NCBI GenBank assembly: GCA_049975265.1
Contig: JBNGDF010000007.1
Location: forward strand, 63,542-127,541
Direction of reading: 5' to 3'
Source: Fidelibacterota bacterium
GTDB taxonomy: Bacteria; Fidelibacterota; UBA2242
DNA length: 64,000 nt
In this document: positions 4,720 to 21,563 of the stretch, piece after piece
Layout: every line of letters starts with the position of its first letter
Numbering within the stretch: position 1 is the first letter of the stretch
Notes under the pieces: generated by a model
What the model saw: only the letters and a program-made list of their open reading frames with translations
What the model was told of the DNA's origin: nothing
Database searches by the model: none
Translations under genes and position numbers: made by a program

Positions 4720-6621
4720 TTAAAACACGATATCACAATCTGCATTCAATCCTCGCTGATCACCATTCCGGTAAGTTAATCCTATTCGGTCGAAATAATT
4801 TAAAACCGGCACCGCCCATTTGCGGCTGGTATGCAGGACCTCTTTCAGTTCGCTGACCGTCGCCAGCTGGTGCTGCCGGAGGTACTCTTTGATTCGCTTT
4901 CCGCCCTCTTGCAGCGTTTCGATATGAATGTACATTCCCCGCTCCAGCTGCACGATCCGCTGAGTTTCCACAAGGTACGCGATGATCTGCTGAAACTCCC
5001 TTTCCGAATAATTCCCGGGAAAGTCCGCCTGACGGACCTTCGGCGGTTCAAAACCTCCTGCCCGCAGCGCTTCTTCAATTTTACCGATCAACTGCTCCTG
5101 CCCGGCGGAAAATTCGATTCGGAAGTCGGCAGCCGCCACACGTTCGCCGGTCAGCCTGATTGCCCCAGTTTCGGCAAGTGTCGTCAATAAATAATTCAAC
5201 AATTCCACCGGAATTTTCTGTATCTCCCGCAATTCCGGGCGCAACATTCCCGGCAAAAGCGGCTGGCGTTTGTGATAATCTGTCAAAACCCGGAGAATTT
5301 TCTGCTTTAATGTCTCCAGCGGAGCGCTGACCGTCCAAAATTTATCCACCGCCACAAGTCTGTTGGTCACCGTCAATTCATGAATAACACTGCTGACCTT
5401 TTCGGCAGATAATGAAAACCGCTGAGCCAGATCGTGCTCACTGAAAATCTCAGGAAAATTATCCTGCAGATAGAATTCAATCAGCTCGGCTCCCTCTTTT
5501 TCCATCAGGGACCGCTGCGATTCGGCGGCGGCAATCGATTTTTTACGCAGTGCTCGGGCAGCTGGCTCCAGCACGATTCCACCACCGATGGTCTGCATAG
5601 GTGAATAGCGCCGGATGACGAAACGATCCCGGAAACCGGCACAGAGGGGCTTTTCAAAAAGCAACTGCCCAATCGCTTCCTCGCCGGGCAGGAGGCGATC
5701 CTGCCCAATCAGGCGCACCCGCGCCAGATATTCCCCCGTCCCCAGATGCACCCGCACCACCGCATTGTATTTCAGTGGATCGACAGCGGGCAACATTTCC
5801 AGCCAAACGGTCAGTACCCGACCGTTCCGAAAAGTACCCGGAGTCGTCAGGACAGCGCCCCGTTGGATATCGCGGTAATCGATCCCCTGAATATTGATCG
5901 CCGCCCGGTGCCCGGCACTAATCGACTCCAGCATGCGATTATGGGACTGAATTCCGCGAACCTTTACCACAACGTCTCGCGGCTGGAGATCCAGCTTATC
6001 GCCCAGTTGAACCCGACCGCCGATGACCGTTCCCGTTACTACGGTGCCGTATCCTTTGACACTGAACACCCGGTCCACCGGCAGTCGGAAGAGCCTGGTC
6101 TCCGGCGATTCGTCGATCTGTTTTTCAGGCAATGTCAACAGATAATCCCTGAGTTCGGTAATTCCGCTCTCTTTAACGGCAGACACACGAAAGAGCTGGG
6201 CGTTTTCCAGGAAACTACTCTTAACAAAATCGCGGATATCCGCCTCCACCAGCTCCAGCCAGTCCGAATCCACCAGGTCCGTTTTGGTAATCACGATAAT
6301 ACCCTCCCGGACATTGAGCAGCCGTAAAATCTCGAAATGTTCCCGCGTCTGCGGCATAATCCCGTCATCCGCCGCAATTACCAGCATTCCGACACCGATG
6401 GTGCTGGCGCCGGTAACCATATTCTTGATGAATTTTTCATGCCCGGGAACATCAATAAAGGCGATATTCTCATTGAGAAAGGCAAAACCGATGTCAATGG
6501 TCATGCCCCGCTCTTTTTCTTCGATCAGACGGTCGGGATCGGTCCCGGTCAGCGCCCGGATCAGGGTTGATTTACCGTGATCAATATGCCCGGCGGTACC
6601 GATCAGAACGGGATGCGCCAT
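4720..6621 (-). CDS. selB: Selenocysteine-specific translation elongation factor
   Basis: [29 protein letters not shown]-terminal winged helix [14 protein letters not shown]; adjacent to selA. Confidence 0.97.
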
Positions 6622-8039
6622 TATTTACCCTGTCCCGACGCAATGGATGTCGCCACCCGGTTTATTGCGCTCACAATAAAAGGCAACTCCTTGTCTGCCA
6701 CGGCTTTCAGGTCCAGAAAAAATTGTCCTTCCCGGATGTAGCCGACCACCGGCGGGTCCTGCTTCCGGAAAAGCGCCGCCAGTTTTGTCTCAGAAATTTT
6801 GGTACAGTTCATCCGCAATGCCACGCTGGGAATCGTCTCCGTGGGCATCGAGCCGCTACCGGCTTCGGCGACCGAATCGCAGATTTCAACCTGGAAAATA
6901 CTTTTTGCCCCATCATCCAGGCCGGCAAGAACGGTCTTCGCCATTTTGCGCAGAGCCGTACGACGGCGCGTCAGAAAGCGATAGGTCTTGATATCCGGTT
7001 GCCCGCCTGCGATCATATAGCGACTTAGGATGAAAGCCAGCATGCTCAGGATCAATTTATCACACCGCACCGCCCGCATCAGCGGATTTTTCCGGAGCTT
7101 GCCCAGATATTCACGCTTGCCGACCACAATACCCGCCTGCGCAGCGCCCAACAGTTTATCGCCGCTGAAGCTGACCAGGTCAAATCCCCGGGCAACAGCG
7201 TCGGCGACCACCGTTTCATGCGGTAAACCGAAGGTTTCCATGGCAATCAGTGCACCACTGCCGAGGTCCAGCATGACAGGTAGATTATGGTGGTGCGCCA
7301 ATTCAATAATGTCGGATTCCGCCGGCTTGCTGGTAAAGCCCTGAATCCGGTAGTTGGAGGTATGTGCCAGCAGGACCGCTGCAGTACCGGGAGTAATGGC
7401 ATTCTCGTAATCCGCCAGATGCGTCCGGTTGGTGGTACCGATCTCCACCATTTTGGCACCGCTCTTTTTCATCACGTCGGGCAGACGGAACGAGCCACCA
7501 ATTTCGATCAGCTCACCCCGGGACACTATCACCTCCCTGCGGTTAGCCAGACTGTTCAGCATCAACAGAACGGCAGCGGCGTTATTGTTGACGACCACCG
7601 CCTGCTGAGCGCCGGTCAGGAGTGTCAGATAATCCTCCAGTAAATCCAGCCGCTCACCCCGTCTGCCACTCTCCAGGTCTATTTCGAGATTCACATATCC
7701 GCTAGCGATATTTTGCAGATACTGAAGAGCATGCTCGCCCAGCGGCGCCCGTCCCAGACCGGTGTGCAGCACCACACCGGTGGCGTTGACCACCCGTTGC
7801 AGGGGCGTCTCCAAAAGCAGCTTGAGGCAGGCATTCACACTGGATGTCACCATTTTCTGTGCTGCATCTCTCGATGTCAGCGTCATCCGACCGGCTGATA
7901 ACTGGTGGCGTAAGCGTTCCAGCTCCCGACGAATGACCTCCGTCAGCACCTCTGTTTTGATATTACTGCACTTAAACTGAGCAACCATCTCGTTGACAGA
8001 GGGCAGATATTGAAAACCGGTAGTCTGTTTTTGATTCAT
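6621..8039 (-). CDS. selA: L-seryl-tRNA(Sec) selenium transferase
   Basis: VVNATGVVLHTGLGRAPL, SRGELIEIGGSFRLPDVM, PLP lysine motif SGDKLLG. Confidence 0.97.
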   Translation of the reverse strand: MNQKQTTGFQYLPSVNEMVAQFKCSNIKTEVLTEVIRRELERLRHQLSAGRMTLTSRDAAQKMVTSSVNACLKLLLETPLQRVVNATGVVLHTGLGRAPLGEHALQYLQNIASGYVNLEIDLESGRRGERLDLLEDYLTLLTGAQQAVVVNNNAAAVLLMLNSLANRREVIVSRGELIEIGGSFRLPDVMKKSGAKMVEIGTTNRTHLADYENAITPGTAAVLLAHTSNYRIQGFTSKPAESDIIELAHHHNLPVMLDLGSGALIAMETFGLPHETVVADAVARGFDLVSFSGDKLLGAAQAGIVVGKREYLGKLRKNPLMRAVRCDKLILSMLAFILSRYMIAGGQPDIKTYRFLTRRRTALRKMAKTVLAGLDDGAKSIFQVEICDSVAEAGSGSMPTETIPSVALRMNCTKISETKLAALFRKQDPPVVGYIREGQFFLDLKAVADKELPFIVSAINRVATSIASGQGK

Positions 8040-11227: not shown

Positions 11228-12361
11228 TTACCCGGCATAAGGCTCCGCCAGATATCGCCTGGCTTCCTCCATAGCACTGCTGCGATTGTCCAGTGAAGCA
11301 GCCTTTTGATATAGTTCAAGAGCAGCCTGCCGTTTGCCCTGCAGATCATAGATTTTACCCAGACGCACATAGGCATTGCCCAGATCGAAATCCATCTCTG
11401 AGTCGTAAGCCGCAATATATTCGGACAGCAACCGCGCCGCCAGTTCCAGATCACCTTCGAGAAACGCCCGGCTGCCGTGAAAAAGCTTCAGACGCTGCTT
11501 ATATTCCTTATGAAAAAAGGGCTCCATACCGGGCAGACGCTTTTCGATTCTCTTCAGGTTTTCGGTTACGTCCGGGTTGCCGGTCTGAATTTTCATCTCC
11601 GCGTACATGTAATTGAAATAGGGGTTGTCGGGGAACTCTTCCAGTAGCATATCCAGCCAGCGTTGCGCCTCGCCGTAATTGGCTTCGAAGTAAATATTGA
11701 GATAGGCTAAAAGGCTGCGCGCTTCATAACGGCTATAGTTCCCCTGCAGGGCAGCAGTTTCAATTTGCTGCAAGCCCTCTTCCTTGGAGCCGGAAATTTG
11801 CAGAATCCAGGAGGCAATTTTCATGAACTTTGACGAGAGCCCGACATAATAATTAAAAACACCGAAAGCAATGATAATATCGGGATTGTCGGGATTTATT
11901 TTCAGCGCCGATTTAAAGTTGCGAATAATGCGATAACCACTGATTAACACTCCCAGATAATCCTTTTCCGCCAGCAGGACCCGTGCCCGGAGTCCGTTCG
12001 CCAGCCCCATATAGTAGATAATTTCCGAGTTATCCGGGTCCAGCACCAGCTGCCGGCGATAATCGAGCAGTACATCTTCAATATCCGCCAACAATTCCCG
12101 ATTCCCGGCGGCATGCCCGTAATTGCCCTGATTGTAAATCCATTCGTTGGCGACCGCGCCGAGCGGACCGAGCGGATGATAGGGTTCATTCCCCGCAACC
12201 TCTAAAAAAATATCCCGCGCCTGTTTATGCTCCATCCGGTTCATGGCTTTCAGTGCTTCCTGCAGGCGCGCCTCCTGCATTTCAGCGGTCTGCGCTCCGA
12301 GCGGGAGAGCCATCGGGAGCGAAAAACAAATATTCAGCAGAATGATCTGGAAATATTTCAT
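11228..12361 (-). CDS. Exported TPR-repeat protein
   Basis: Signal peptide MKYFQIILLNICFSLPMALPLGA; multiple TPR-like helical repeats. Confidence 0.75.
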   Translation of the reverse strand: MKYFQIILLNICFSLPMALPLGAQTAEMQEARLQEALKAMNRMEHKQARDIFLEVAGNEPYHPLGPLGAVANEWIYNQGNYGHAAGNRELLADIEDVLLDYRRQLVLDPDNSEIIYYMGLANGLRARVLLAEKDYLGVLISGYRIIRNFKSALKINPDNPDIIIAFGVFNYYVGLSSKFMKIASWILQISGSKEEGLQQIETAALQGNYSRYEARSLLAYLNIYFEANYGEAQRWLDMLLEEFPDNPYFNYMYAEMKIQTGNPDVTENLKRIEKRLPGMEPFFHKEYKQRLKLFHGSRAFLEGDLELAARLLSEYIAAYDSEMDFDLGNAYVRLGKIYDLQGKRQAALELYQKAASLDNRSSAMEEARRYLAEPYAG

Positions 12362-12448
12362 TAAATCCCGTCTTTTTACCGGACGTTTAGGAAAATGCCC
12401 CAATTACTCGGGGCATTTCGATTATCATCACGCAAGCGTTCAATCGGA

Positions 12449-13381
12449 TTATTCAATAAAGTCGGCTTCCATGAAATCTTCCAGGCGAAATCGCCCTTCC
12501 TTTTCCAGTTCGCGGACCTTTTCGACAATCAGTTTCTGTGCCGCTTCCACTTTGCGGCGCGGCTGCGGACCCTCCAGCAGTTCCATCTCATCTTCCAGAA
12601 TAATCTGGGTCCGCTGCGGCAGTGAATTAATAAAGAGTTCCTTTATCTCTTCACTCTGCCCCTTGAGAGCATAGGCAATTTCCGAGGCTTCCACGGATTT
12701 CAGGACATCGGAAAGAATGTCGTGCGGCAGCTTCGGCAGGTCCTCAAAACTGAAGTAGTGGCGTTTGACCTCCTGGACGATGTCGGGCGCCTCTTTCTCC
12801 AAGTGCTCCAGGAAACGTTTTTCGTCCTTGGGACGCATCTGACTAAGAATGCCGGCGAGATTTTGACCGCCGCCCCGTTTGAATTCCGAAGCCCGGGGAA
12901 TAAAAGCCGATTTCTCCTTTAAATCATTGGCAATACTAACAACCCCTTCGAGAGGAATGTCGTCCAGATGACCGATTTCGGTCACTACTTTGGGCTGAAC
13001 CGTCGGGTCCAGCGCCTGCAGCACATTCACTTGCCGTTCCACGGGTAGCTGGGCAATCGTCAGCGCCATAATCCGCGGCGATTCTGTGCCGATCAGATAG
13101 ACAACCTGTTCGTCGGTAAGGTTGCTTAAAAACTCAAAAGGCTTTTTAGTCTCCTCGGTAGCCGGTGTGAATTTCTCCGAGACAAAACTGAAATAAAACT
13201 CCTCCAGAATCTCCTTTTTAACCTGGAAAGGAATATTATTAATCGTCGCCATCCGCTGACGCACCTTCTGAATCTGCTCCTTGCTCATACCTTTGAAAAG
13301 CTGCAGCGCCAGATTATTTCCCAATGTTTTAAACAGGATGGCTACTTTATCTAAACCGTCGAGATTTTTAAAATCCACCAT
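12449..13381 (-). CDS. fliG: FliG-family motor rotor protein (orphan)
   Basis: N-domain KVAILFKTLG, PFEFL, ESPR (EHPQ-equivalent), GGG linker, YFSFEDL, C-terminal LPQRTQIILEDEMELLEGPQPRRKVEAAQ; AAGGAGG RBS before ATG 13381. Confidence 0.9.
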   Translation of the reverse strand: MVDFKNLDGLDKVAILFKTLGNNLALQLFKGMSKEQIQKVRQRMATINNIPFQVKKEILEEFYFSFVSEKFTPATEETKKPFEFLSNLTDEQVVYLIGTESPRIMALTIAQLPVERQVNVLQALDPTVQPKVVTEIGHLDDIPLEGVVSIANDLKEKSAFIPRASEFKRGGGQNLAGILSQMRPKDEKRFLEHLEKEAPDIVQEVKRHYFSFEDLPKLPHDILSDVLKSVEASEIAYALKGQSEEIKELFINSLPQRTQIILEDEMELLEGPQPRRKVEAAQKLIVEKVRELEKEGRFRLEDFMEADFIE

Positions 13382-13395
13382 TTTTTCCTTCCTCC

Positions 13396-14829
13396 TTAGA
13401 ATTCTGATTCGCTCTCTTCGGCTTGTTTCTGCTGGCTCAACCACTCATTGATCACGCGGGAAGCCGTCTCGGGCTGACCGACGCTCATGGAGATGACCGA
13501 CTGTTTGATACCCTTCATCTCCTCTTTGGCAGCACCGATATCATAGGATGCTTCCTGCTTGGGTGTTTCGGCTGCCGGTGCACTTGGTGGTGCCTGCTCC
13601 GGCGGCGCAGCGGGTGTCGAAGGCTGGACCGGCTGGGTCGGTTGAGTAGGCGTCGTCTGCGACGGACGCGGTCCCATGGGTACTTTCGTCCCATAACCCC
13701 ATTCCAATTCCTGGCGTTTCTGATGATTGCGCCGATTAACCAGCAGTATAATCACCAGTACTATCAGCGCGACGGCAAAGAGTCCCAAAATGATATAGAA
13801 AACCCGATTGTCCATCTTTGCGAATCCGGGCGGGGTTGTCTCCAGGGCACCCATCTCCAATTCCTGCAGCCTGCGATTGCTTTCCCGCAGCTGCTCCTTG
13901 AGATTGTATAATTCCGTCTCACGGGCATCGGCAAGGGCGCGGGTCTGTTGCCGCTGATCATCGGAAATCTGCGGCGATTCCAGCTGATTTTTCAGGTCTG
14001 AAATCTGTCTGCGCAGCTCCTGAATCCGCAGCGAATCCCGAATGACTGCCTGGCGTTCAAGTTGCTTCTGCTGTTCAATTTGGGATAGTCTTTCGGCTTC
14101 CTGCTGACGGCGCTCGAGATTATCAATCTTTTCAGCGATGTTTTTCAGGATAATGGCTTCCGCGGCGTCCTGATCTTCCCGCTTTTTAAAGGAGGCTGTC
14201 ATAACGCTGATAACATCACCCCGGGAGCGGTCGTAATGGGAGGCGACGGCAACTACCTGACGGACATTTTCGATAATTTCAGGAGTAACCCCATCCTCCA
14301 TAATGATATTGACCTGCTGCCTCTTAATTACCGGAATCGCCGGACCTGTTGAGCGGGTCGTCTTTGCAGATTTTTTTGTAGGAGTCTGAGCGGATTCTCG
14401 GGTAACTTCCTCCGGCGGTCCTTCCCGCAGGGTGGCTGTCGCTGCTTCCTGTTCCGCCCGAACGATCTCCTCCGGTGTCTCGAAGCCGGGTAAAGGCAAT
14501 CCCAAATCCGAGCTGGGTCTGACCGGGCGTTGCTCCTCCGCCTCTGCCGGTGCCGTTTTAACTTGTGTTTGGGCGGTCTCTCCGATTGCCATCTCCGTAT
14601 CTTTCGCCGCCTGAAACTCCAGTTCAACCACCACATCAACTACAAACTTGATATCATCCAGCAGTTTGTCCAGCGCTTCGGTAATCCGCTCACGGAGATT
14701 GTTCTCCAGCATCAGCTTCTGTGAAAGATAGGACAGTTGATTGTCTTGTGATGGTGTCCAGATCACTGTGATAATCAAAATGATCCCAATCAGCATCCAT
14801 TTATTGAATCTTGTCCGACTCTTGAGCAT
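13396..14829 (-). CDS. Truncated FliF-like ring protein (TM1, RBM3-like, coiled coil, TM2, FliG-binding tail)
   Basis: LENNLRERITEALDKLL..FVVDVVVELEF and IKRQQVNI...VASHYDRSRGDVISVMTASF resemble FliF RBM3; tail QPETASRVINEWLSQ resembles the FliF C-terminal helix; directly upstream of fliG. Confidence 0.75.
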   Translation of the reverse strand: MLKSRTRFNKWMLIGIILIITVIWTPSQDNQLSYLSQKLMLENNLRERITEALDKLLDDIKFVVDVVVELEFQAAKDTEMAIGETAQTQVKTAPAEAEEQRPVRPSSDLGLPLPGFETPEEIVRAEQEAATATLREGPPEEVTRESAQTPTKKSAKTTRSTGPAIPVIKRQQVNIIMEDGVTPEIIENVRQVVAVASHYDRSRGDVISVMTASFKKREDQDAAEAIILKNIAEKIDNLERRQQEAERLSQIEQQKQLERQAVIRDSLRIQELRRQISDLKNQLESPQISDDQRQQTRALADARETELYNLKEQLRESNRRLQELEMGALETTPPGFAKMDNRVFYIILGLFAVALIVLVIILLVNRRNHQKRQELEWGYGTKVPMGPRPSQTTPTQPTQPVQPSTPAAPPEQAPPSAPAAETPKQEASYDIGAAKEEMKGIKQSVISMSVGQPETASRVINEWLSQQKQAEESESEF

Positions 14830-14844: not shown

Positions 14845-15528
14845 TTATAAAATTGTCAAAAAGAATATTTCAACACGCCGATTCATCGCCATACGCTCGG
14901 GGGTAGTATTGGCTTCTGCGATCGTTGCTCCGGGAGCCCGGGGACGTGTGTCCGCATAGCCAATCGCCTGAAACCGCTCGGGCGAAATGCCCCGTGCAAT
15001 GTAGTAACGCACCACCTGCGCCGCCCGCGCCGCCGAGAGCTCCCAATTGGAGGGAAACATCGCCGACCGAATCGGTACATTATCGGTATGTCCCTCGATG
15101 GCAATCGGATAATTGGATTTTTTCATCATATCTTCGAATTTATTTAAAATCGGGTAGATACGGGGATTCAGATCGGCACTGCCGATTCCAAAGGATATTT
15201 CACTGGGAATCTTGATGGCGACACCACGCTCGCTGGTCTCCACCTGAATCTGCTCCTGTAAATTTTCCTCCTCAATGACCTTGACTACATCGGAATAGAT
15301 TTCCGCCAAGGAATATTTTTTGGTTTTCGCCTTCTTACCCAGCGCCTGTCCGACGGAATCACTGAACTGCTCCAGCTTGACGGGATCAATTGTAGACATG
15401 GAAAAGAGCAGCACGAAAAAGGTCATCAGCAGCGTCATCATATCGCCGTAGGTCACCAGCCACGGTTCTTGATCACCCCTGGACTCTTCGAATATATTTT
15501 TCTTTTTACGTTTGCCTTCCTCTGCCAT
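14845..15528 (-). CDS. motB: Stator B subunit MotB/PomB with OmpA-like peptidoglycan-binding domain
   Basis: WLVTYGDMMTLLMTFFVLLFSMS (critical Asp), EGHTDNVP, SNWELSAARA, NRRVEI. Confidence 0.93.
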   Translation of the reverse strand: MAEEGKRKKKNIFEESRGDQEPWLVTYGDMMTLLMTFFVLLFSMSTIDPVKLEQFSDSVGQALGKKAKTKKYSLAEIYSDVVKVIEEENLQEQIQVETSERGVAIKIPSEISFGIGSADLNPRIYPILNKFEDMMKKSNYPIAIEGHTDNVPIRSAMFPSNWELSAARAAQVVRYYIARGISPERFQAIGYADTRPRAPGATIAEANTTPERMAMNRRVEIFFLTIL

Positions 15529-15534
15529 CTGACC

Positions 15535-16323
15535 TTATTCCTCGGGTTTTTTCCAGTCACGCGGTCTCAGATAGGAATTCAGTTTTTCACGTACGATCAG
15601 AGGATGCTTGCGGGCATGTATCAGTAAAACTCCCTCAATCAGCATCTGCTGCATCATTGTCTGATTCTTAATCCGGATTTCGAACTTTTCCGCCATGGGA
15701 TTAAAAAACATGTTCGCCAGAATTGTCCCGTAAAACGTCGTGATCAAGGCAGCGCCCATTCCGGCACCCAAAACTGCCATCGGATCGTCACCGCCGCCAG
15801 CCATGTCAGCCATTCCGTACAGCATCACCACCAAACCGATCAGTGTTCCGATCATTCCAAAAGCCGGCGAATATTTGCCCATCGTCCGCAGCACATTGGC
15901 TTCGCCCTTTTCCCGTAATATCCGGTTTTCGATGCGGGTTTCCAGAATTTCCCGAATTTCATCGGGATTATAGCCGTCAATCACCATCTGGAGACCATCA
16001 CGAAGAAAGAAATTTTTGACACTGCCCAAAGATTTTTCCAGTTCCTGCATACTCTTTCGGGCAATCGGTGCCAACTCCACAATAGCATCCACTTCGCTAG
16101 GCAGATCAATCTTCTGCTTTTTGAACACCGCAAAGGTGGAGCGCAGCAAACCGAACACATCCCGCATGGAAAAGCTCAGCAGCGTTGCGGCAAAGGAGCC
16201 GCCTGCCACAATCAGAAAGCTGGACAAGCTTACGAAAACAATAAAATTCGGGGTCAACTGGTAGATTCCCAGTACAATCAGTCCAATTCCGGCAAAGATC
16301 CCCAATAGACTCGCTATATCCAT
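15535..16323 (-). CDS. motA: Stator A subunit MotA/PomA
   Basis: MDIASLLG start, FLRDGLQMVIDG, SPAFGMIGTLIGLV, ALITTFYG, HPLIVREKLNSYL. Confidence 0.93.
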   Translation of the reverse strand: MDIASLLGIFAGIGLIVLGIYQLTPNFIVFVSLSSFLIVAGGSFAATLLSFSMRDVFGLLRSTFAVFKKQKIDLPSEVDAIVELAPIARKSMQELEKSLGSVKNFFLRDGLQMVIDGYNPDEIREILETRIENRILREKGEANVLRTMGKYSPAFGMIGTLIGLVVMLYGMADMAGGGDDPMAVLGAGMGAALITTFYGTILANMFFNPMAEKFEIRIKNQTMMQQMLIEGVLLIHARKHPLIVREKLNSYLRPRDWKKPEE

Positions 16324-16338
16324 ACAGTACTTCCCTCT

Positions 16339-17682
16339 TTATTCCTTTCGCGTTGATCCCGTGCTTCTCAGACGATTTTCATTCAGAGCCCGTAAAATAT
16401 TGCGTACATCATCATATTCCGGGTCGATACGCAGCGCCAGATTCCAGTTGATCGTCGCCCGGTCAATATCACCTAGTTTATAGTAAATGGAACCGCGGCG
16501 GGCGTATGCCAGCGCCAGGTTGGGATTCAGATCGATAGCCGCTTCGACCTCCTGCAGCGCTTCCCGATACTCACCGGCATAGAAATAGCGCAGGGACCGG
16601 GAGAGATGTTTCAGGGCTAAATTGATATTCTGTTCCAGGGCATGTTTCGCCAGTTTGGCGGAACGCACGGAATCTTCCAGAACCGCCGTCTTCTGCCGCA
16701 GCTGGGCGATCTCACTGGTCAAATACTTTATTTCTGACTCGAATATTTTCAGGGAATCTCTCAATTTGGCAATCTCATAATCCGCCGCCTTTAACGTCGA
16801 ATCCAGCTGAATGGCAAACTGTTCTTCCATATCCAGAATTAATTGAGTCTCTTCGTCCACCATCCCCTCAAGCCGACGGCGGCGTGCGCTTTCCGGTTTG
16901 ACTCTGGGAATCCGAAAATCCAAACCAATATTCAGACTGGGGTAATTCTTGGTGGCACCGAGGTTAAAATCTTCCGCTCCAAAATTGTACAATTTGACCA
17001 GATTGTTTACGCCAAGCATCAGGTTATAGTCCTTGGTAAAGGGAATCCGCACACCGGCATTGATCCCGCCGCCGTCGAATTCGCCGATAAATTCTACCCC
17101 GCCCCGCTCCGCCATGATGCTGGTATGGAGCAGAATTCCCGCAAATACTCCGGCACTGGTGGTGGAGTCGCTGCCAAATCCGGTCGCCAGCCCTCCGGTC
17201 CCAAAACCCATATAGGTACAGAGATTGCTGGATTCAAACTGCTTTTCGTTGCTGATCACACCGAAAATAGACAGGGTTTTTGTGTCGATGTTGAGCTCCT
17301 TGTCACCCTGCTTCAACACCAGGTCATGTATCCCGGCGGAAAAACTGATATCTCCGTAGACAAACAGACGCTTCTGAAAATGCAGCCCGAATTCCACCGG
17401 CGGACCGGAACCGACACCCTGGATAGAGGTCACCCCGATTTTGAAGGTATTGGACAGATCAGTTTCGAAAAACACTCCTCTCGTAATCAGTGTATCGGCA
17501 AACCCATAGATGTCGGTACAAATTCCTGTCCGGAACACATAGGGGGTCCGATAGATACTGCTGGTGGGAATTTTCATCATGTAGCCGGGCTTCGTAAATG
17601 CAACCCGGGTTATCTGGCCGGAGAGCGAGACGGTCAGGATTATGCTTGTCAAAATTTGGATATAACCACGTTTTATCATCAA
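16339..17682 (-). CDS. Putative outer-membrane beta-barrel (YjbH-like) with C-terminal coiled coil and TPR
   Basis: Signal peptide; ~240 aa of alternating beta strands ending SLNIGLDF; heptad region; TPR ALAYARRGSIYYKLGDIDRATINWNLALRIDP. Confidence 0.65.
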   Translation of the reverse strand: MMIKRGYIQILTSIILTVSLSGQITRVAFTKPGYMMKIPTSSIYRTPYVFRTGICTDIYGFADTLITRGVFFETDLSNTFKIGVTSIQGVGSGPPVEFGLHFQKRLFVYGDISFSAGIHDLVLKQGDKELNIDTKTLSIFGVISNEKQFESSNLCTYMGFGTGGLATGFGSDSTTSAGVFAGILLHTSIMAERGGVEFIGEFDGGGINAGVRIPFTKDYNLMLGVNNLVKLYNFGAEDFNLGATKNYPSLNIGLDFRIPRVKPESARRRRLEGMVDEETQLILDMEEQFAIQLDSTLKAADYEIAKLRDSLKIFESEIKYLTSEIAQLRQKTAVLEDSVRSAKLAKHALEQNINLALKHLSRSLRYFYAGEYREALQEVEAAIDLNPNLALAYARRGSIYYKLGDIDRATINWNLALRIDPEYDDVRNILRALNENRLRSTGSTRKE

Positions 17683-17701: not shown

Positions 17702-18454
17702 TCAATCCATGGCGCCCAATCGTTTCAGTTCCAGGTCTGCCAGCTTGGCCATCTGACCCTCCGGAAATCGCCTGAGAAGCCGTCTAAAAAATATTTCCGC
17801 CATCCTTTTATCCCCCAGTTTGCGGTAGGTCACTGCCGTCAGAAACAGGGCATCATCGAGATTTTCGCACAGCGGATATTCTACGACTTTTTTCAGATAT
17901 TCTAAAGCAAGATATTCGTCTTTCAGATAAATATAACAGTTACCAATCCAGAAATAGGCATCGCCGATCATAGCGCCGGGCAGGTCACTTTCAATGCTTT
18001 TCTGAAAGTAATCCACGGCAACAGGATAATTTCTTGTCAGATAAGCCGCCTGCCCCTTCTCAAAAAAACGCTCACCCTCTTTCTTGGTATAACGGATACG
18101 GGGATTACCCAGATTGGCATGGGGGGACTGAAAAACGAGATGTTTCAGCCGCTGATTCTCGATTACCAGTGAATCGACCAAGTTTCGGATTTCCGTTAAC
18201 TGCTGTTCGACTTGTGCATGACCGTGGGAAAGGGCCAAAGAGAGGGAGTCTATTTGGTTCTGCAATTGAACCATCATTGGGTTCGCAACGCCAATGCCGT
18301 GAAGGGGGGCAGACTCCCTCGCTGGCTCTATGGTTATCCCTAAATCGTACATAAATCCCTGATCCGCCGTCCCCCGGCTGCTATCGGCTTTCTGGGCAAA
18401 TATCGCGAGGGGCATAATCAACATCAGTGCCAATCGATTCACATTCCCATTCAA
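17702..18454 (-). CDS. Periplasmic coiled-coil + TPR protein (CpoB/YbgF-like)
   Basis: Signal peptide; coiled coil; DAYFWIGNCY, DDALF, RRFP TPR pattern. Start codon uncertain (TTG 18454 or GTG 18442). Confidence 0.75.
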   Translation of the reverse strand: MNGNVNRLALMLIMPLAIFAQKADSSRGTADQGFMYDLGITIEPARESAPLHGIGVANPMMVQLQNQIDSLSLALSHGHAQVEQQLTEIRNLVDSLVIENQRLKHLVFQSPHANLGNPRIRYTKKEGERFFEKGQAAYLTRNYPVAVDYFQKSIESDLPGAMIGDAYFWIGNCYIYLKDEYLALEYLKKVVEYPLCENLDDALFLTAVTYRKLGDKRMAEIFFRRLLRRFPEGQMAKLADLELKRLGAMD

Positions 18455-19245
18455 AATTTTTCTTGGGTCGTTAAATATTTCCGGGCTTTTTCCACCAGTT
18501 CACTGTCTGGAAATTCCCGCTCCAGCCGCCGGAAGGCAGCCAGTGCATCCGGCTGATTGTTCATTTTCAGATAGCTCAGACCGATCTTGAACAGCGCCGC
18601 ATCGGCTTTATTGCCATCGCCCAGAGGTTTCACTTTCTGAAACGCTTCCACGGCTTGTGGATATTTTTCCTGCGAATAGAGGTTTTCGCCAAGCCAGTAC
18701 TGGCAGTTATCCGCCAACGGATGCTGTCGGCTCGTTTGCAGCAATATCTGAAAGCGCTTCATACTGGCTGAATAATCCCGGTCGAAATAGAGGTTCAACG
18801 CCTCATTGTATTGTGTCCGGTATTCCGAATCGTTCACCTCGTGAACCAGCGTATCGGCATCCTCTGCCACCACGTTGTTGGATTTGATCGATTCCAGAAT
18901 CTCTTCCGTCAGGGCTTTGTCCTCATCAAAGGTGTTCACAATGAGCTTGAAATTTTCCACCTGATTCTGCTGCTCTTTGAGTGAATCCACTTCCGACTGT
19001 TTCGCCATCAGCGAGTCTCGCAGCTGCCTGTTATACTGTTTCAACCGCTGGATTTCTTCCCGAATTGCCTGGAGCTCGGCATCGTGAACGCTGATCTCGG
19101 ACTGCAGCTCCAGTACCTCGACGTTTTTATCGCTGAGTTCGGCTTTTTTTTCAGAAATCTCGTTAACAGTGGAATCGGTCTGGGCTGCAATGACCATGAT
19201 CATCCCTATGAGCAGTGCGAGAGCTTTGATCCGGAGAGCCGTCAT
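18451..19245 (-). CDS. Periplasmic coiled-coil + TPR protein (CpoB/YbgF-like)
   Basis: TAATG coupling at 19245; long coiled coil; HPLADNCQYWLGE, KADAALFKIG, FPDSE motifs typical of CpoB. Confidence 0.8.
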   Translation of the reverse strand: MTALRIKALALLIGMIMVIAAQTDSTVNEISEKKAELSDKNVEVLELQSEISVHDAELQAIREEIQRLKQYNRQLRDSLMAKQSEVDSLKEQQNQVENFKLIVNTFDEDKALTEEILESIKSNNVVAEDADTLVHEVNDSEYRTQYNEALNLYFDRDYSASMKRFQILLQTSRQHPLADNCQYWLGENLYSQEKYPQAVEAFQKVKPLGDGNKADAALFKIGLSYLKMNNQPDALAAFRRLEREFPDSELVEKARKYLTTQEKF

Positions 19246-20204
19246 TACTGATACTGCTCCCATTCGATGGTGTAGGAATACCCGATAAAACTGCCAAAAT
19301 CCTTCGGGATGATCAGTTCAAATTTTCCCGTCGCTCCGGGCAGAAGCGAATTATTGGTCGTGATACCCGAATCCTCAAAGGTGTAATAACTGCCCTCGAC
19401 GAAAGCGGTGCGGGTTTTGGTGTCACCACTCCAGTTTTTACGAAAAATAAAATTAACTTTGACGAAATCCGCCCGCCGGGCACCGATATTCTTCACCTCA
19501 CCGGAAAAGATGGTGTTCCCCGAACGGTCTTTCTGCTCACTGATATTACCCACCAGAACACAGTTGGGCGTCTTGGCGCTGCTTTCCGACAGCTGTGCCG
19601 GCTCGCTGGCTTGGGAAACATAACCGGGCTGTGGCACCGGCGGATAGGCGGCGCTTTTCTGGACATCGCTGACCAGCTCCTGGGGTATATATTTCTGGGC
19701 AGGTTCTTCCGGCACGTTGGTAATAACCCGGACAATCGAGGCTTTTTCCAGCACGAGATACCCGATCAGGGTCTCGACCTTGACGATCTTATCATCCTGG
19801 TAAATTATTTTTCCGTAAATGGATGTACCGTTATCGGTGATAATTTCCTTATCATAGATTGCCAGCGGATTCATCCACATCTGACTGTTAGCTTGCAACT
19901 CTTCCAGTTGAGAACGCAGATGCTTGAGTTCGGCGGCGAGCTTTTTCACTTCAAAAGTCAGCTCATTTACCACATAATTCGCATCGGCGCTGCTGCTCCG
20001 TATGGGAGCCGCCGGCACGGTTTTTACCTCTGCCGGAGTCTCTCCAGTCGCTCCGGATGCTGTTTCTGTCCGGATTTCGCTCGTTGTCTGAGCGGTCTGA
20101 ATCTGTTCCGTCTCACTCTTGTCTGCGGTCCTGCTGCCGAACAGGCTGCACCCCTGGACAAGGGGAACTATGAGGAGGGCTGCAAAAAATATTTTGGCTT
20201 TCAT
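19245..20204 (-). CDS. Lipoprotein with coiled coil, small beta-domain and C-terminal Ig-like (FxLYD-type) domain
   Basis: Lipobox LVQG-C; low-complexity linker; C-terminal FSGEVKNIGARRADFVKVNF...LLPGATGKFEL. Confidence 0.75.
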   Translation of the reverse strand: MKAKIFFAALLIVPLVQGCSLFGSRTADKSETEQIQTAQTTSEIRTETASGATGETPAEVKTVPAAPIRSSSADANYVVNELTFEVKKLAAELKHLRSQLEELQANSQMWMNPLAIYDKEIITDNGTSIYGKIIYQDDKIVKVETLIGYLVLEKASIVRVITNVPEEPAQKYIPQELVSDVQKSAAYPPVPQPGYVSQASEPAQLSESSAKTPNCVLVGNISEQKDRSGNTIFSGEVKNIGARRADFVKVNFIFRKNWSGDTKTRTAFVEGSYYTFEDSGITTNNSLLPGATGKFELIIPKDFGSFIGYSYTIEWEQYQ

Positions 20205-20273: not shown

Positions 20274-20303
20274 AATATAGTCTTCATATCGGGTGAATGT
20301 CAA
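20274..20303 (-). promoter_or_regulatory. Sigma70-type promoter for the motor operon
   Basis: Minus strand TTGACA-N18-TATATT, about 70 bp upstream of ATG 20204. Confidence 0.6.
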
Positions 20304-20426: not shown

Positions 20427-21563
20427 TCACTTGAACGGAAAACGTAACAGGGCTGCCATATGTCCATATTTTTCCATCGGCAGCTGGATATATTGCACGT
20501 TCACCCCCTGTTGCAGAGCCAAATGCAGGATATGTTCATTGATGTTCTGGGTACGTTCCAAAGGACCGCCGTGTTTAGGACATTCCGCCTCCGGTGAAAG
20601 GTCCAGATAGTTACAGTGCCGGCAAAAGACCCCTTTGCGCTGATAACTGTTGTTCAGTAAAATCGTATCGATCCATTTATCCCGCAGTTTTGGCAGAATA
20701 GCGTCGATTCCTTCCATTGTCTGACCGGCTTTCTTCTGATTTTCAAACTGTTGTAGCAGCTCCTTCTCAAATTTCAAGCGGGATTCCCGGCTGGCTTTCT
20801 GCACCTTTTCAAAGACATCGTTCAGCGGCGCATGGGGTTCGATGTCGATTACGGCGGTGACCTTCCCATCGACGTAATCGTGCAGATACTTGCGAAATTC
20901 TCCGATGGACTCCCGCCGTCCGCCGAGAACGACCCAGTTAAAATCGTGGGACTTATTCAGCACAAACATTTTTTGCGCTACCTCTTTGTAATGCTGAATA
21001 ATGCCCTGATGGATATTTCGCTCCACCTTCCGCTCCTGGCGTCCCTGATAGCCTCCTACCTTCACCGATTCCGGCGCATTATCGGTGACTTTAAACAACT
21101 CTTTAAAATCACCCAAGGATTGTTCAAATATGCGCGCCTTGGATTTGTCAATCAACAGTACGCCGTACCGACGGTATTCGCTGAACAGCTGCGACAGCTG
21201 ATAGATATATGGTTTTGGTTGTATGACCAACTCATTCTGCAGGGGAATTTTCAGGTTTATGACCTTCCAAAATCCGCTTTTGCTCTGACAAAAGCAGATC
21301 GAGCTGACATATTTCGATGTATCCAGTTCCACCTCAAACCAGTTGACAATACGATCAAAGTCATCGAGAACGGAGTTTTTCTCTACCTCGGTCAACTGCT
21401 TGAAGTAGGTGGTATTTTTTTTATACCGGATCATCTTTTTCAATTCGACAAGGTGAGTCTTATGGTTTCCGTTTTTAATATTCGCCGTAAAATAGGCACT
21501 GGTTACCGGATAATCATTTTGGGTAAAGTGTGCCAACTCCCTGACAACATCATTTTTGATCAT
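20427..21563 (-). CDS. Bacterial archaeo-eukaryotic release factor (baeRF, family 10-like)
   Basis: PVTSAY, PKPYIYQL, LLIDKSKARIF, GGYQGRQERK loop, Zn-ribbon CRHC..CPKH, C-terminal MAALLRF. Confidence 0.8.
   Translation of the reverse strand: MIKNDVVRELAHFTQNDYPVTSAYFTANIKNGNHKTHLVELKKMIRYKKNTTYFKQLTEVEKNSVLDDFDRIVNWFEVELDTSKYVSSICFCQSKSGFWKVINLKIPLQNELVIQPKPYIYQLSQLFSEYRRYGVLLIDKSKARIFEQSLGDFKELFKVTDNAPESVKVGGYQGRQERKVERNIHQGIIQHYKEVAQKMFVLNKSHDFNWVVLGGRRESIGEFRKYLHDYVDGKVTAVIDIEPHAPLNDVFEKVQKASRESRLKFEKELLQQFENQKKAGQTMEGIDAILPKLRDKWIDTILLNNSYQRKGVFCRHCNYLDLSPEAECPKHGGPLERTQNINEHILHLALQQGVNVQYIQLPMEKYGHMAALLRFPFK

Follow-up and report, generated by a model that had tools for sequence, protein, structure and literature searches.

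A conserved operon around the fliF-like gene

The window, a 64,000-nucleotide stretch of DNA from a Fidelibacterota bacterium, carries a fliF-like gene in an operon with the gene order LP319–TPR270–TPR250–OMB447–motA–motB–fliF-like–fliG (Table 1). Comparison of loci showed that fliG directly follows the fliF-like gene in 75/75 loci with enough sequence (from 80 genome loci) and that the six core genes stand in order in 52/52 genome loci with enough sequence, the number of TPR genes per locus varying from zero to two. The order was also kept in 19 of 20 loci picked for divergence, the other being cut by a contig end, and in 22 of 23 metagenome loci, the exception being a block deletion.

Table 1. 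Features of the operon and of its FliF-like protein (positions in the window)
Feature	Position	Strand	Basis
Sigma-70-type promoter-like site, 11/12 matches, ~70 nt upstream of the first gene	20274..20303	(-)	consensus match only
LP319, predicted lipoprotein whose lipobox ends in Cys, with a coiled coil and two conserved domains that match no known family	19245..20204	(-)
TPR270, signal peptide, coiled coil, CpoB/YbgF-like TPR (under NCBIfam cut-off), variable member	18451..19263	(-)
TPR250, signal peptide, CpoB/YbgF-like TPR (under cut-off), variable member	17702..18454	(-)
OMB447, predicted 12-strand outer-membrane barrel, 93-residue periplasmic helix, highly conserved TPR tip	16339..17682	(-)
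motA, flagellar-type stator A; R89, E96, T160, T195, T196 conserved	15535..16323	(-)
motB with plug, D29, OmpA-type peptidoglycan-binding domain	14845..15528	(-)
fliF-like ORF, 477 aa	13396..14829	(-)	ORF translation
Predicted cleavable signal peptide, residues 1–27 (earlier "TM1")	14749..14829	(-)	sequence marks
RBM3 helix 1 and strand 1, residues 28–74	14608..14748	(-)	AlphaFold model, structure match
LPLPGF motif, residues 111–116, in the middle of disordered collar insert 75–163	14482..14499	(-)	P114-G115 in 94/94
RBM3 strand 2, helix 2, strand 3, residues 164–215	14185..14340	(-)	model, structure match
Periplasmic helical insert, residues 218–330, modelled antiparallel hairpin	13840..14178	(-)	model, alignments, heptad test
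Single lasting membrane helix, residues 343–364 (FliF TM2 equivalent)	13738..13803	(-)	predicted
Helix-Pro-helix-Trp tail, FliG-binding type, residues 431–475	13405..13539	(-)	model, alignment, conservation
fliG paralogue, 310 aa, N/M/C domains; ~25 residues missing N–M; EHPQ degenerate	12449..13381	(-)
Operon flanking genes	20427-21563, 11228-12403, 4720-8039

Among 151 genomes of the phylum, which are drafts and whose kin are not independent, the FliF-like protein was found in 105 and the barrel in 106 (union 107); the two sets differ in three genomes, owing to contig ends in two and to a very divergent copy, within an intact operon, in the third. The operon was absent from 44 genomes. Most sampled Marinisomatota (SAR406) carry one conserved operon for a cut-down base-ring protein, FliG, MotA/MotB and outer-membrane partners. 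The named loci belong to Marinimicrobia/Fidelibacterota, a metagenome scan recovered close relatives only, and a plasmid search returned only ordinary FliG (24–29%). A wider range was considered on account of two loci labelled Bathyarchaeota and SAR86 (L045 and L096); these are 33–78% identical to phylum copies, lie on 3-kb contigs and were taken as mis-binned. No published description of the operon was found in the literature, the search stopping short of supplements and most subscription papers.

The upstream flank holds a baeRF10 release-factor-like gene and an amidohydrolase gene, and the downstream flank holds a TPR gene, ispG, LpxL-like and Sua5-like genes, selA and a selB-like gene. Because these are conserved in near relatives only, they are not part of the system. 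At one locus (L199:9000-10600) the operon has been lost as a block, leaving a truncated LP319 on one side and the TPR gene of the downstream flank on the other; an apparent transposase remnant, judged by eye, accompanies the deletion. One flagellated genome (G027; L154:7153-13690) carries a six-gene operon without TPR genes, and its FliF-like protein is too divergent for Pfam or the homologue profile.

Domain make-up of the FliF-like protein

Pfam YscJ_FliF_C was matched at residues 53–214 (32.7 bits; cut-off 23.8). The AlphaFold model of the 477-aa protein (pLDDT 72, pTM 0.38) displayed an RBM3 fold formed by residues 28–74 and 164–215 with disorder between them, followed by helices at 218–284 and 290–330, a membrane helix and a helix-turn-helix tail. 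All 15 Foldseek matches of this model at E ≤ 1e-3 were FliF, and structure comparison of model residues 28–215 with FliF by VIA gave a Z of 15.6 and an rmsd of 1.8 Å over 100 residues. HHalign against 27 canonical FliF proteins of the same phylum gave 95.4%, over RBM3 only, and a profile from 66 homologues (among 120 matches listed; 236 were found) matched at E < 0.01 only FliF chains in the PDB. The insert at residues 75–163 is of low complexity and low model confidence. These results confirm the preliminary description, in which an RBM3-like segment resumes after a low-complexity insert.

The same description held that RBM1 and RBM2 are missing. No PF01514 (YscJ_FliF) match was obtained in the FliF-like protein at E ≤ 1, the control, the canonical FliF of a flagellated relative (G006), scoring 224 bits. 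Furthermore, only 11–15 residues run from the conserved Gln to RBM3 helix 1 in all 94 homologues, leaving no room for RBM1/2, and the claim therefore stands. The first hydrophobic segment, in contrast, had been taken for a lasting TM1, and its features are those of a signal peptide: its end shows Gln at +1 in 89 of 94 homologues and G/A/S at −1 in 86 of 94. In the type-IX-tailed secreted proteins of this genome, a rough heuristic, which called a cleavage site in 49 of 55, likewise found Gln at +1 in 23/55 against a background of 8%. A Gln-at-signal-site rule is on record for Bacteroidetes, with variation in other lineages of the FCB group; Fidelibacterota go unmentioned in the available part of that source (PMC5837995). 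The segment is thus probably a signal-peptidase-I signal peptide that is cleaved, suggesting that the mature protein is probably single-pass.

The C-terminal tail, described earlier as of the FliG-binding type, pairs with the Vibrio FliF C-terminal helix in the profile alignment, and its W463 is invariant (94/94 homologues), but the match is weak on its own (HHalign 2.4%). By the ungapped register of the profile alignment, Ala52 (at least 90% conserved) is aligned to Ile252 of Salmonella FliF. The I252A substitution renders Salmonella non-motile, and RBM3 alone makes the S-ring and collar in that organism, according to the available text of PMC11739650. Alanine at the position where it abolishes Salmonella motility implies that the ring contacts differ. 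Taken together, these results indicate that the 477-aa protein is a FliF paralogue in which RBM3 is followed by a helical insert, a single membrane helix and a tail of the FliG-binding type.

The insert had been described as about 100 residues of Q/E/R-rich heptads that could act as a drive shaft in place of the rod. The composition holds, with 42% Q/E/R over residues 218–330, but heptad periodicity was significant only at 268–284 (p = 0.001) and not over 222–330 (p = 0.14). The model places the helices in an antiparallel hairpin at pLDDT values over 90, and residues 223–335 align structurally with the antiparallel hairpins of FadA, the LSD1 tower and prefoldin. The RBM3-to-TM spacer is 44–211 residues long in the homologues, compared with 19–30 in 26 canonical FliF proteins. 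The insert follows the C-terminus of RBM3, which in FliF runs outward to the rim of the ring, where the membrane helix lies.

The same motor could nevertheless be imagined with the coiled coils as its shaft, either raising the RBM3 ring towards the outer membrane or forming a bundle along the axis. The long spacer (119–211 residues in 91/94 homologues) favours such an arrangement, as does the loss of TM1, which frees RBM3 from the inner membrane; single-chain models may also wrongly fold long helices back. However, the confident hairpin, the weak overall heptad signal and three genomes of one family in which the spacer is just 44–47 residues and the operon otherwise intact argue against it. 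An axial shaft is doubtful, and we regard this version of the motor as quite unlikely.

Stator, FliG and outer-membrane partners

In MotA, R89 was found in 86/86 sequences, E96 in 83/86 and T160, T195 and T196 in 86/86. These residues align with R88, E96 and T158/T185/T186 of PomA; according to the available text of PMC10374538, that Arg and Glu are where PomA touches FliG, and the three Thr are a hallmark of Na+ stators. D29 of MotB is present in 91/91 sequences and the wall-binding motifs are near-invariant. The pair thus has the plug, Asp, OmpA domain and cytoplasmic Arg and Glu of a flagellar-type stator, and by sequence all 86 MotA proteins carry the threonines of the sodium type.

The FliG paralogue keeps the N-terminal helices, armadillo motifs and Gly-Gly link. 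Its EHPQ motif (FliM motif) is lost, and His falls outside the five most frequent residues across 93 operon FliG proteins; EHPQ or ENPQ occurs in 34/34 flagellar FliG proteins, a set that was picked by that motif. About 25 residues are missing between FliG N and M in all 20 copies shown. The torque helix is full-length in 29/93 homologues and four residues shorter in 64/93, and the Arg–Glu spacing of MotA is one residue shorter than the canonical and PomA spacing in 80/86, indicating that the rotor–stator interface is not canonical. We read the altered FliG–MotA interface as a probable co-adaptation that would avoid cross-talk with flagella; it could also reflect a loss of rotation.

In addition, this genome contains a second, stand-alone motA (L149:2079-2927; G000:C21) and a stand-alone motB (L150:5552-6235; G000:C5), perhaps forming a second stator for the same rotor. 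Orthologues of the stand-alone motA (≥45% identity, among the matches listed) occur in at least 84/151 genomes, 82 of them with the operon. A 695-aa protein, P0270, combines a signal, an RBM3-like part, an LPG motif, helices, a TM and FliG M/C in what appears to be a fused rotor; its FliG part scores 98 bits for the operon FliG type, and its RBM3 match is weak (17%).

The OMB447 model (pLDDT 82) displayed a 12-strand barrel, a 93-residue helix of about 14 nm by helix rise, and TPRs, the TPR end being the most conserved part of the protein. Its barrel was matched structurally by the KdgM, autotransporter, NanC and FapF barrels (Z 16–18), and the fold shows no function. An Atlas lead to a YjbH-like protein (0.93) was followed by PF06082 (YjbH) in 0/48 family members; a distant relative, P0257, passes the PF06082 cut-off. 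The barrel profile found 144 proteins among 1.84 billion, mostly fragments and including distant barrel-TPR relatives. No PDB sequence match was found for OMB447, nor for LP319 at E ≤ 5. LP319 has a lipobox in most clades; in the marine clade (L052–L110) it has a further N-terminal domain, and a conventional signal peptide replaces the lipobox.

The collar insert of the FliF-like protein contains a PG[FILV] motif at its middle in 94/94 homologues and in the divergent G027 copy, and in 0/27 canonical FliF proteins of the phylum. Flagellar FliF collar loops reach the rod and carry torque, according to the available text of 10.64898/2025.12.04.692373. From this analogy and the invariance of the motif, we propose that the LPxPGF peptide may grip the barrel tail or the lipoprotein; in the collar loop it would be a better torque outlet than the coiled coil.

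Independence from flagella

In this genome, which is 95.3% complete, no FlhA, flagellin or rod match was found, and tblastn with FliP/Q/R, FlhB, FliE/H/J/M/N, Flg, FliC/D and CheW/CheR/MCP of two flagellated relatives gave no match. Against the flagellar clusters of G009 and G006, the only matches in the genome were FliG, MotA, MotB and generic ATPase, GTPase, sigma and response-regulator paralogues. The suggestion of a FliF-type ring with no place for an export gate but with its FliG partner retained is therefore upheld, the ring itself being predicted: no gate gene was found in this genome, and fliG came next at every locus with enough sequence. FlhA was detected in 38/151 genomes, 28 with the operon and 10 without; 79 have the operon only and 34 neither. 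FliM/FliN domains occur in 36/151 genomes, all FlhA-positive, with at most two per genome. The system shows neither the SctJ-type RBM1/2 and export apparatus of an injectisome nor the export gate, rod, hook and filament of a flagellum (FlhA was not found in 79/107 carriers), nor a FliM/FliN switch with the FliG EHPQ motif. In an unrooted MotA tree, operon, orphan and flagellar sequences (28, 22 and 5 rows) fell into three separate clades, operon MotA standing apart from flagellar MotA with support of 100/100.

The operon could alternatively be a decaying remnant of a lost flagellar system, since all four motor genes are homologous to flagellar genes, with about 24% identity to flagellar FliG. 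However, it is intact, strongly conserved and phylum-wide, has its own MotA clade and is lost as a block; 79 carriers lack FlhA and 28 also have a separate flagellar set. The operon is therefore no relic, the 28 genomes with both systems ruling that reading out, and we consider it almost certainly wrong. Together, the domain make-up, the operon structure, the flagella-independent distribution and the conserved stator and rotor residues demonstrate a real, conserved, flagellum-independent rotor–stator operon with new outer-membrane partners.

The product of this operon is likely to be a sodium-driven rotary machine, not described before, that acts on the outer membrane. Sec export and cleavage would yield a single-pass FliF-like protein, whose RBM3 domains would oligomerise into an S-ring with a collar and whose tail would co-fold with FliG-N to give a FliG ring without FliM/FliN, implying rotation in one direction and no chemotactic switching. 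Wall-anchored MotA5B2 units would pass Na+ and turn the ring, the helical hairpins serving as rim struts. The LPxPGF loop, which has a flexible tether of about 50 residues on either side and lies where flagellar FliF loops grip the rod, would bind the periplasmic helix or TPR of the barrel, or the lipoprotein, and send torque outward; the output would most likely be movement of surface-exposed proteins on a gliding-type conveyor. These last two steps are the weakest; the operon carries no adhesin gene and nothing ties it to surface cargo. The complete reading, in which the RBM3-only paralogue is the rotor ring of a sodium-driven, switch-less motor turning an outer-membrane complex with surface-protein output, is given slightly less than an even chance, and the motor core alone, without that output, is rated more probable.

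Other functions were weighed against this motor. The operon might energise envelope maintenance in place of Tol-Pal, exerting force on outer-membrane proteins for division invagination or lipid balance. Two CpoB/YbgF-like TPR proteins are consistent with this role, as are the lack of a Pal over the cut-off in this genome, its single ExbB/TolQ gene within an exbB-exbD-exbD-tonB set, and the detection of Pal over the cut-off in just 9/151 genomes. However, the TPR matches are under the cut-off, Tol-type pulling needs no geared ring, and the two systems are not complementary (8/9 Pal genomes have the operon, and 43/44 non-carriers also lack Pal); this role seems rather unlikely. Such rarity of Pal is an observation in its own right in a diderm phylum. 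A non-rotating scaffold or load sensor, with a ring that serves as a dock for stators and controls ion flow or reports envelope stress but does not keep rotating, would fit the remodelled torque helix, the shortened FliG N–M link, the altered ring contact and the absence of a visible load such as a filament. The invariant rotor-contact Arg of MotA, the conserved Glu, ion site and wall-binding domain, and the lack of a signalling gene in the operon make it unlikely.

The operon could also encode an obligatory type IX secretion motor that takes the place of GldLM and the GldKN ring: SprA is present in 151/151 genomes, 86 type-IX tails exceed the cut-off in this genome, and GldM was found in 0/151, albeit without a scoring positive control. 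However, 44 SprA-positive genomes, including the single-contig G016 and G067, lack the system, which therefore is not obligatory, and in this genome sprA has a Ton set some 6 kb away; we consider this role very unlikely. The best explanation does include a possible accessory part in the movement of secreted adhesins. The SprA-type translocon of this genome lies at G000:C29:18713-24619 (L151), with the exbB-exbD-exbD-tonB set nearby. A ring motor acting on the outer membrane remains the best reading, with the coiled-coil shaft as a minor rival. Its most specific form, a geared one-way Na+ motor that uses the FliF collar loop to grip a barrel/lipoprotein hub and sets surface proteins moving to give surface motility, is offered tentatively.

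To our knowledge, FliF, FliG and flagellar-type MotAB have been taken to act together in flagella only. A 2025 survey reported rotor genes in 11% of non-motile species, and its available text raises an alternative function as a possibility (PMC12199754). The phylum-wide operon makes such a rotor function testable and offers a natural minimal rotor of RBM3, one helix and FliG with no switch; it also means that fliF, fliG and motAB matches overcall flagellar motility in Fidelibacterota. If the proposal is true, an abundant ocean phylum would have an unrecognised surface motility and would offer a rotary motor free of secretion that can be studied in living cells. The individual parts are familiar, whereas the assembly as a whole falls within no known family by the criteria applied, and its function is a proposal.

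Compared with the flagellar FliF, FliG, MotA5B2 and PomA5B2 structures (PDB 8z5v, 6scn, 1lkv, 8ucs, 8bri), the system shares RBM3 with a split collar insert, TM2 and a C-terminal tail, FliG N/M/C, and the stator plug, Asp, OmpA domain, rotor-contact charges and Na+-type threonines. Unlike flagellar FliF, the operon protein lacks RBM1/2, probably has TM1 cleaved and contains a long helical insert; unlike the flagellum, the operon lacks an export gate, ATPase, rod, P/L rings, hook, filament and FliM/N, and has new outer-membrane partners. A machine built on the flagellar torque core might be the mirror image of the injectisome, with rotor and stator kept and export and axle discarded, a speculative view that is less probable than the motor itself. 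SpoIIIAG of Bacillus sporulation is likewise a split, FliF-RBM3-like RBM outside flagella, and the Chlamydia FliF–FliG fusion likewise joins a shortened FliF to FliG in a bacterium without flagella, according to the available text of PMC4768692. SpoIIIAG, which was not among the structure matches listed (Foldseek, VIA), has no FliG tail or stator, unlike the operon, whereas the Chlamydia fusion has no RBM3 but retains some of the SctJ region, and it occurs together with FlhA and an injectisome, a complementary loss.

The Bacteroidota GldLM–GldKN machinery offers a works-like analogy, with a 5:2 ion motor, a ring and outer-membrane cargo, and SprA and tailed proteins exist in Fidelibacterota; however, no GldM was found in the phylum (no positive control scored), and torque would here enter through a cytoplasmic FliG ring. 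Tol-Pal with CpoB and Myxococcus Agl-Glt likewise combine a MotA-family motor with TPR or coiled-coil periplasmic proteins and outer-membrane partners. No TolQR, TolA, TolB or Pal gene lies in the operon locus. Whereas those systems use TolQR-type stators and a TolA/TonB-type transducer, the operon described here encodes a flagellar-type stator with FliG and FliF.
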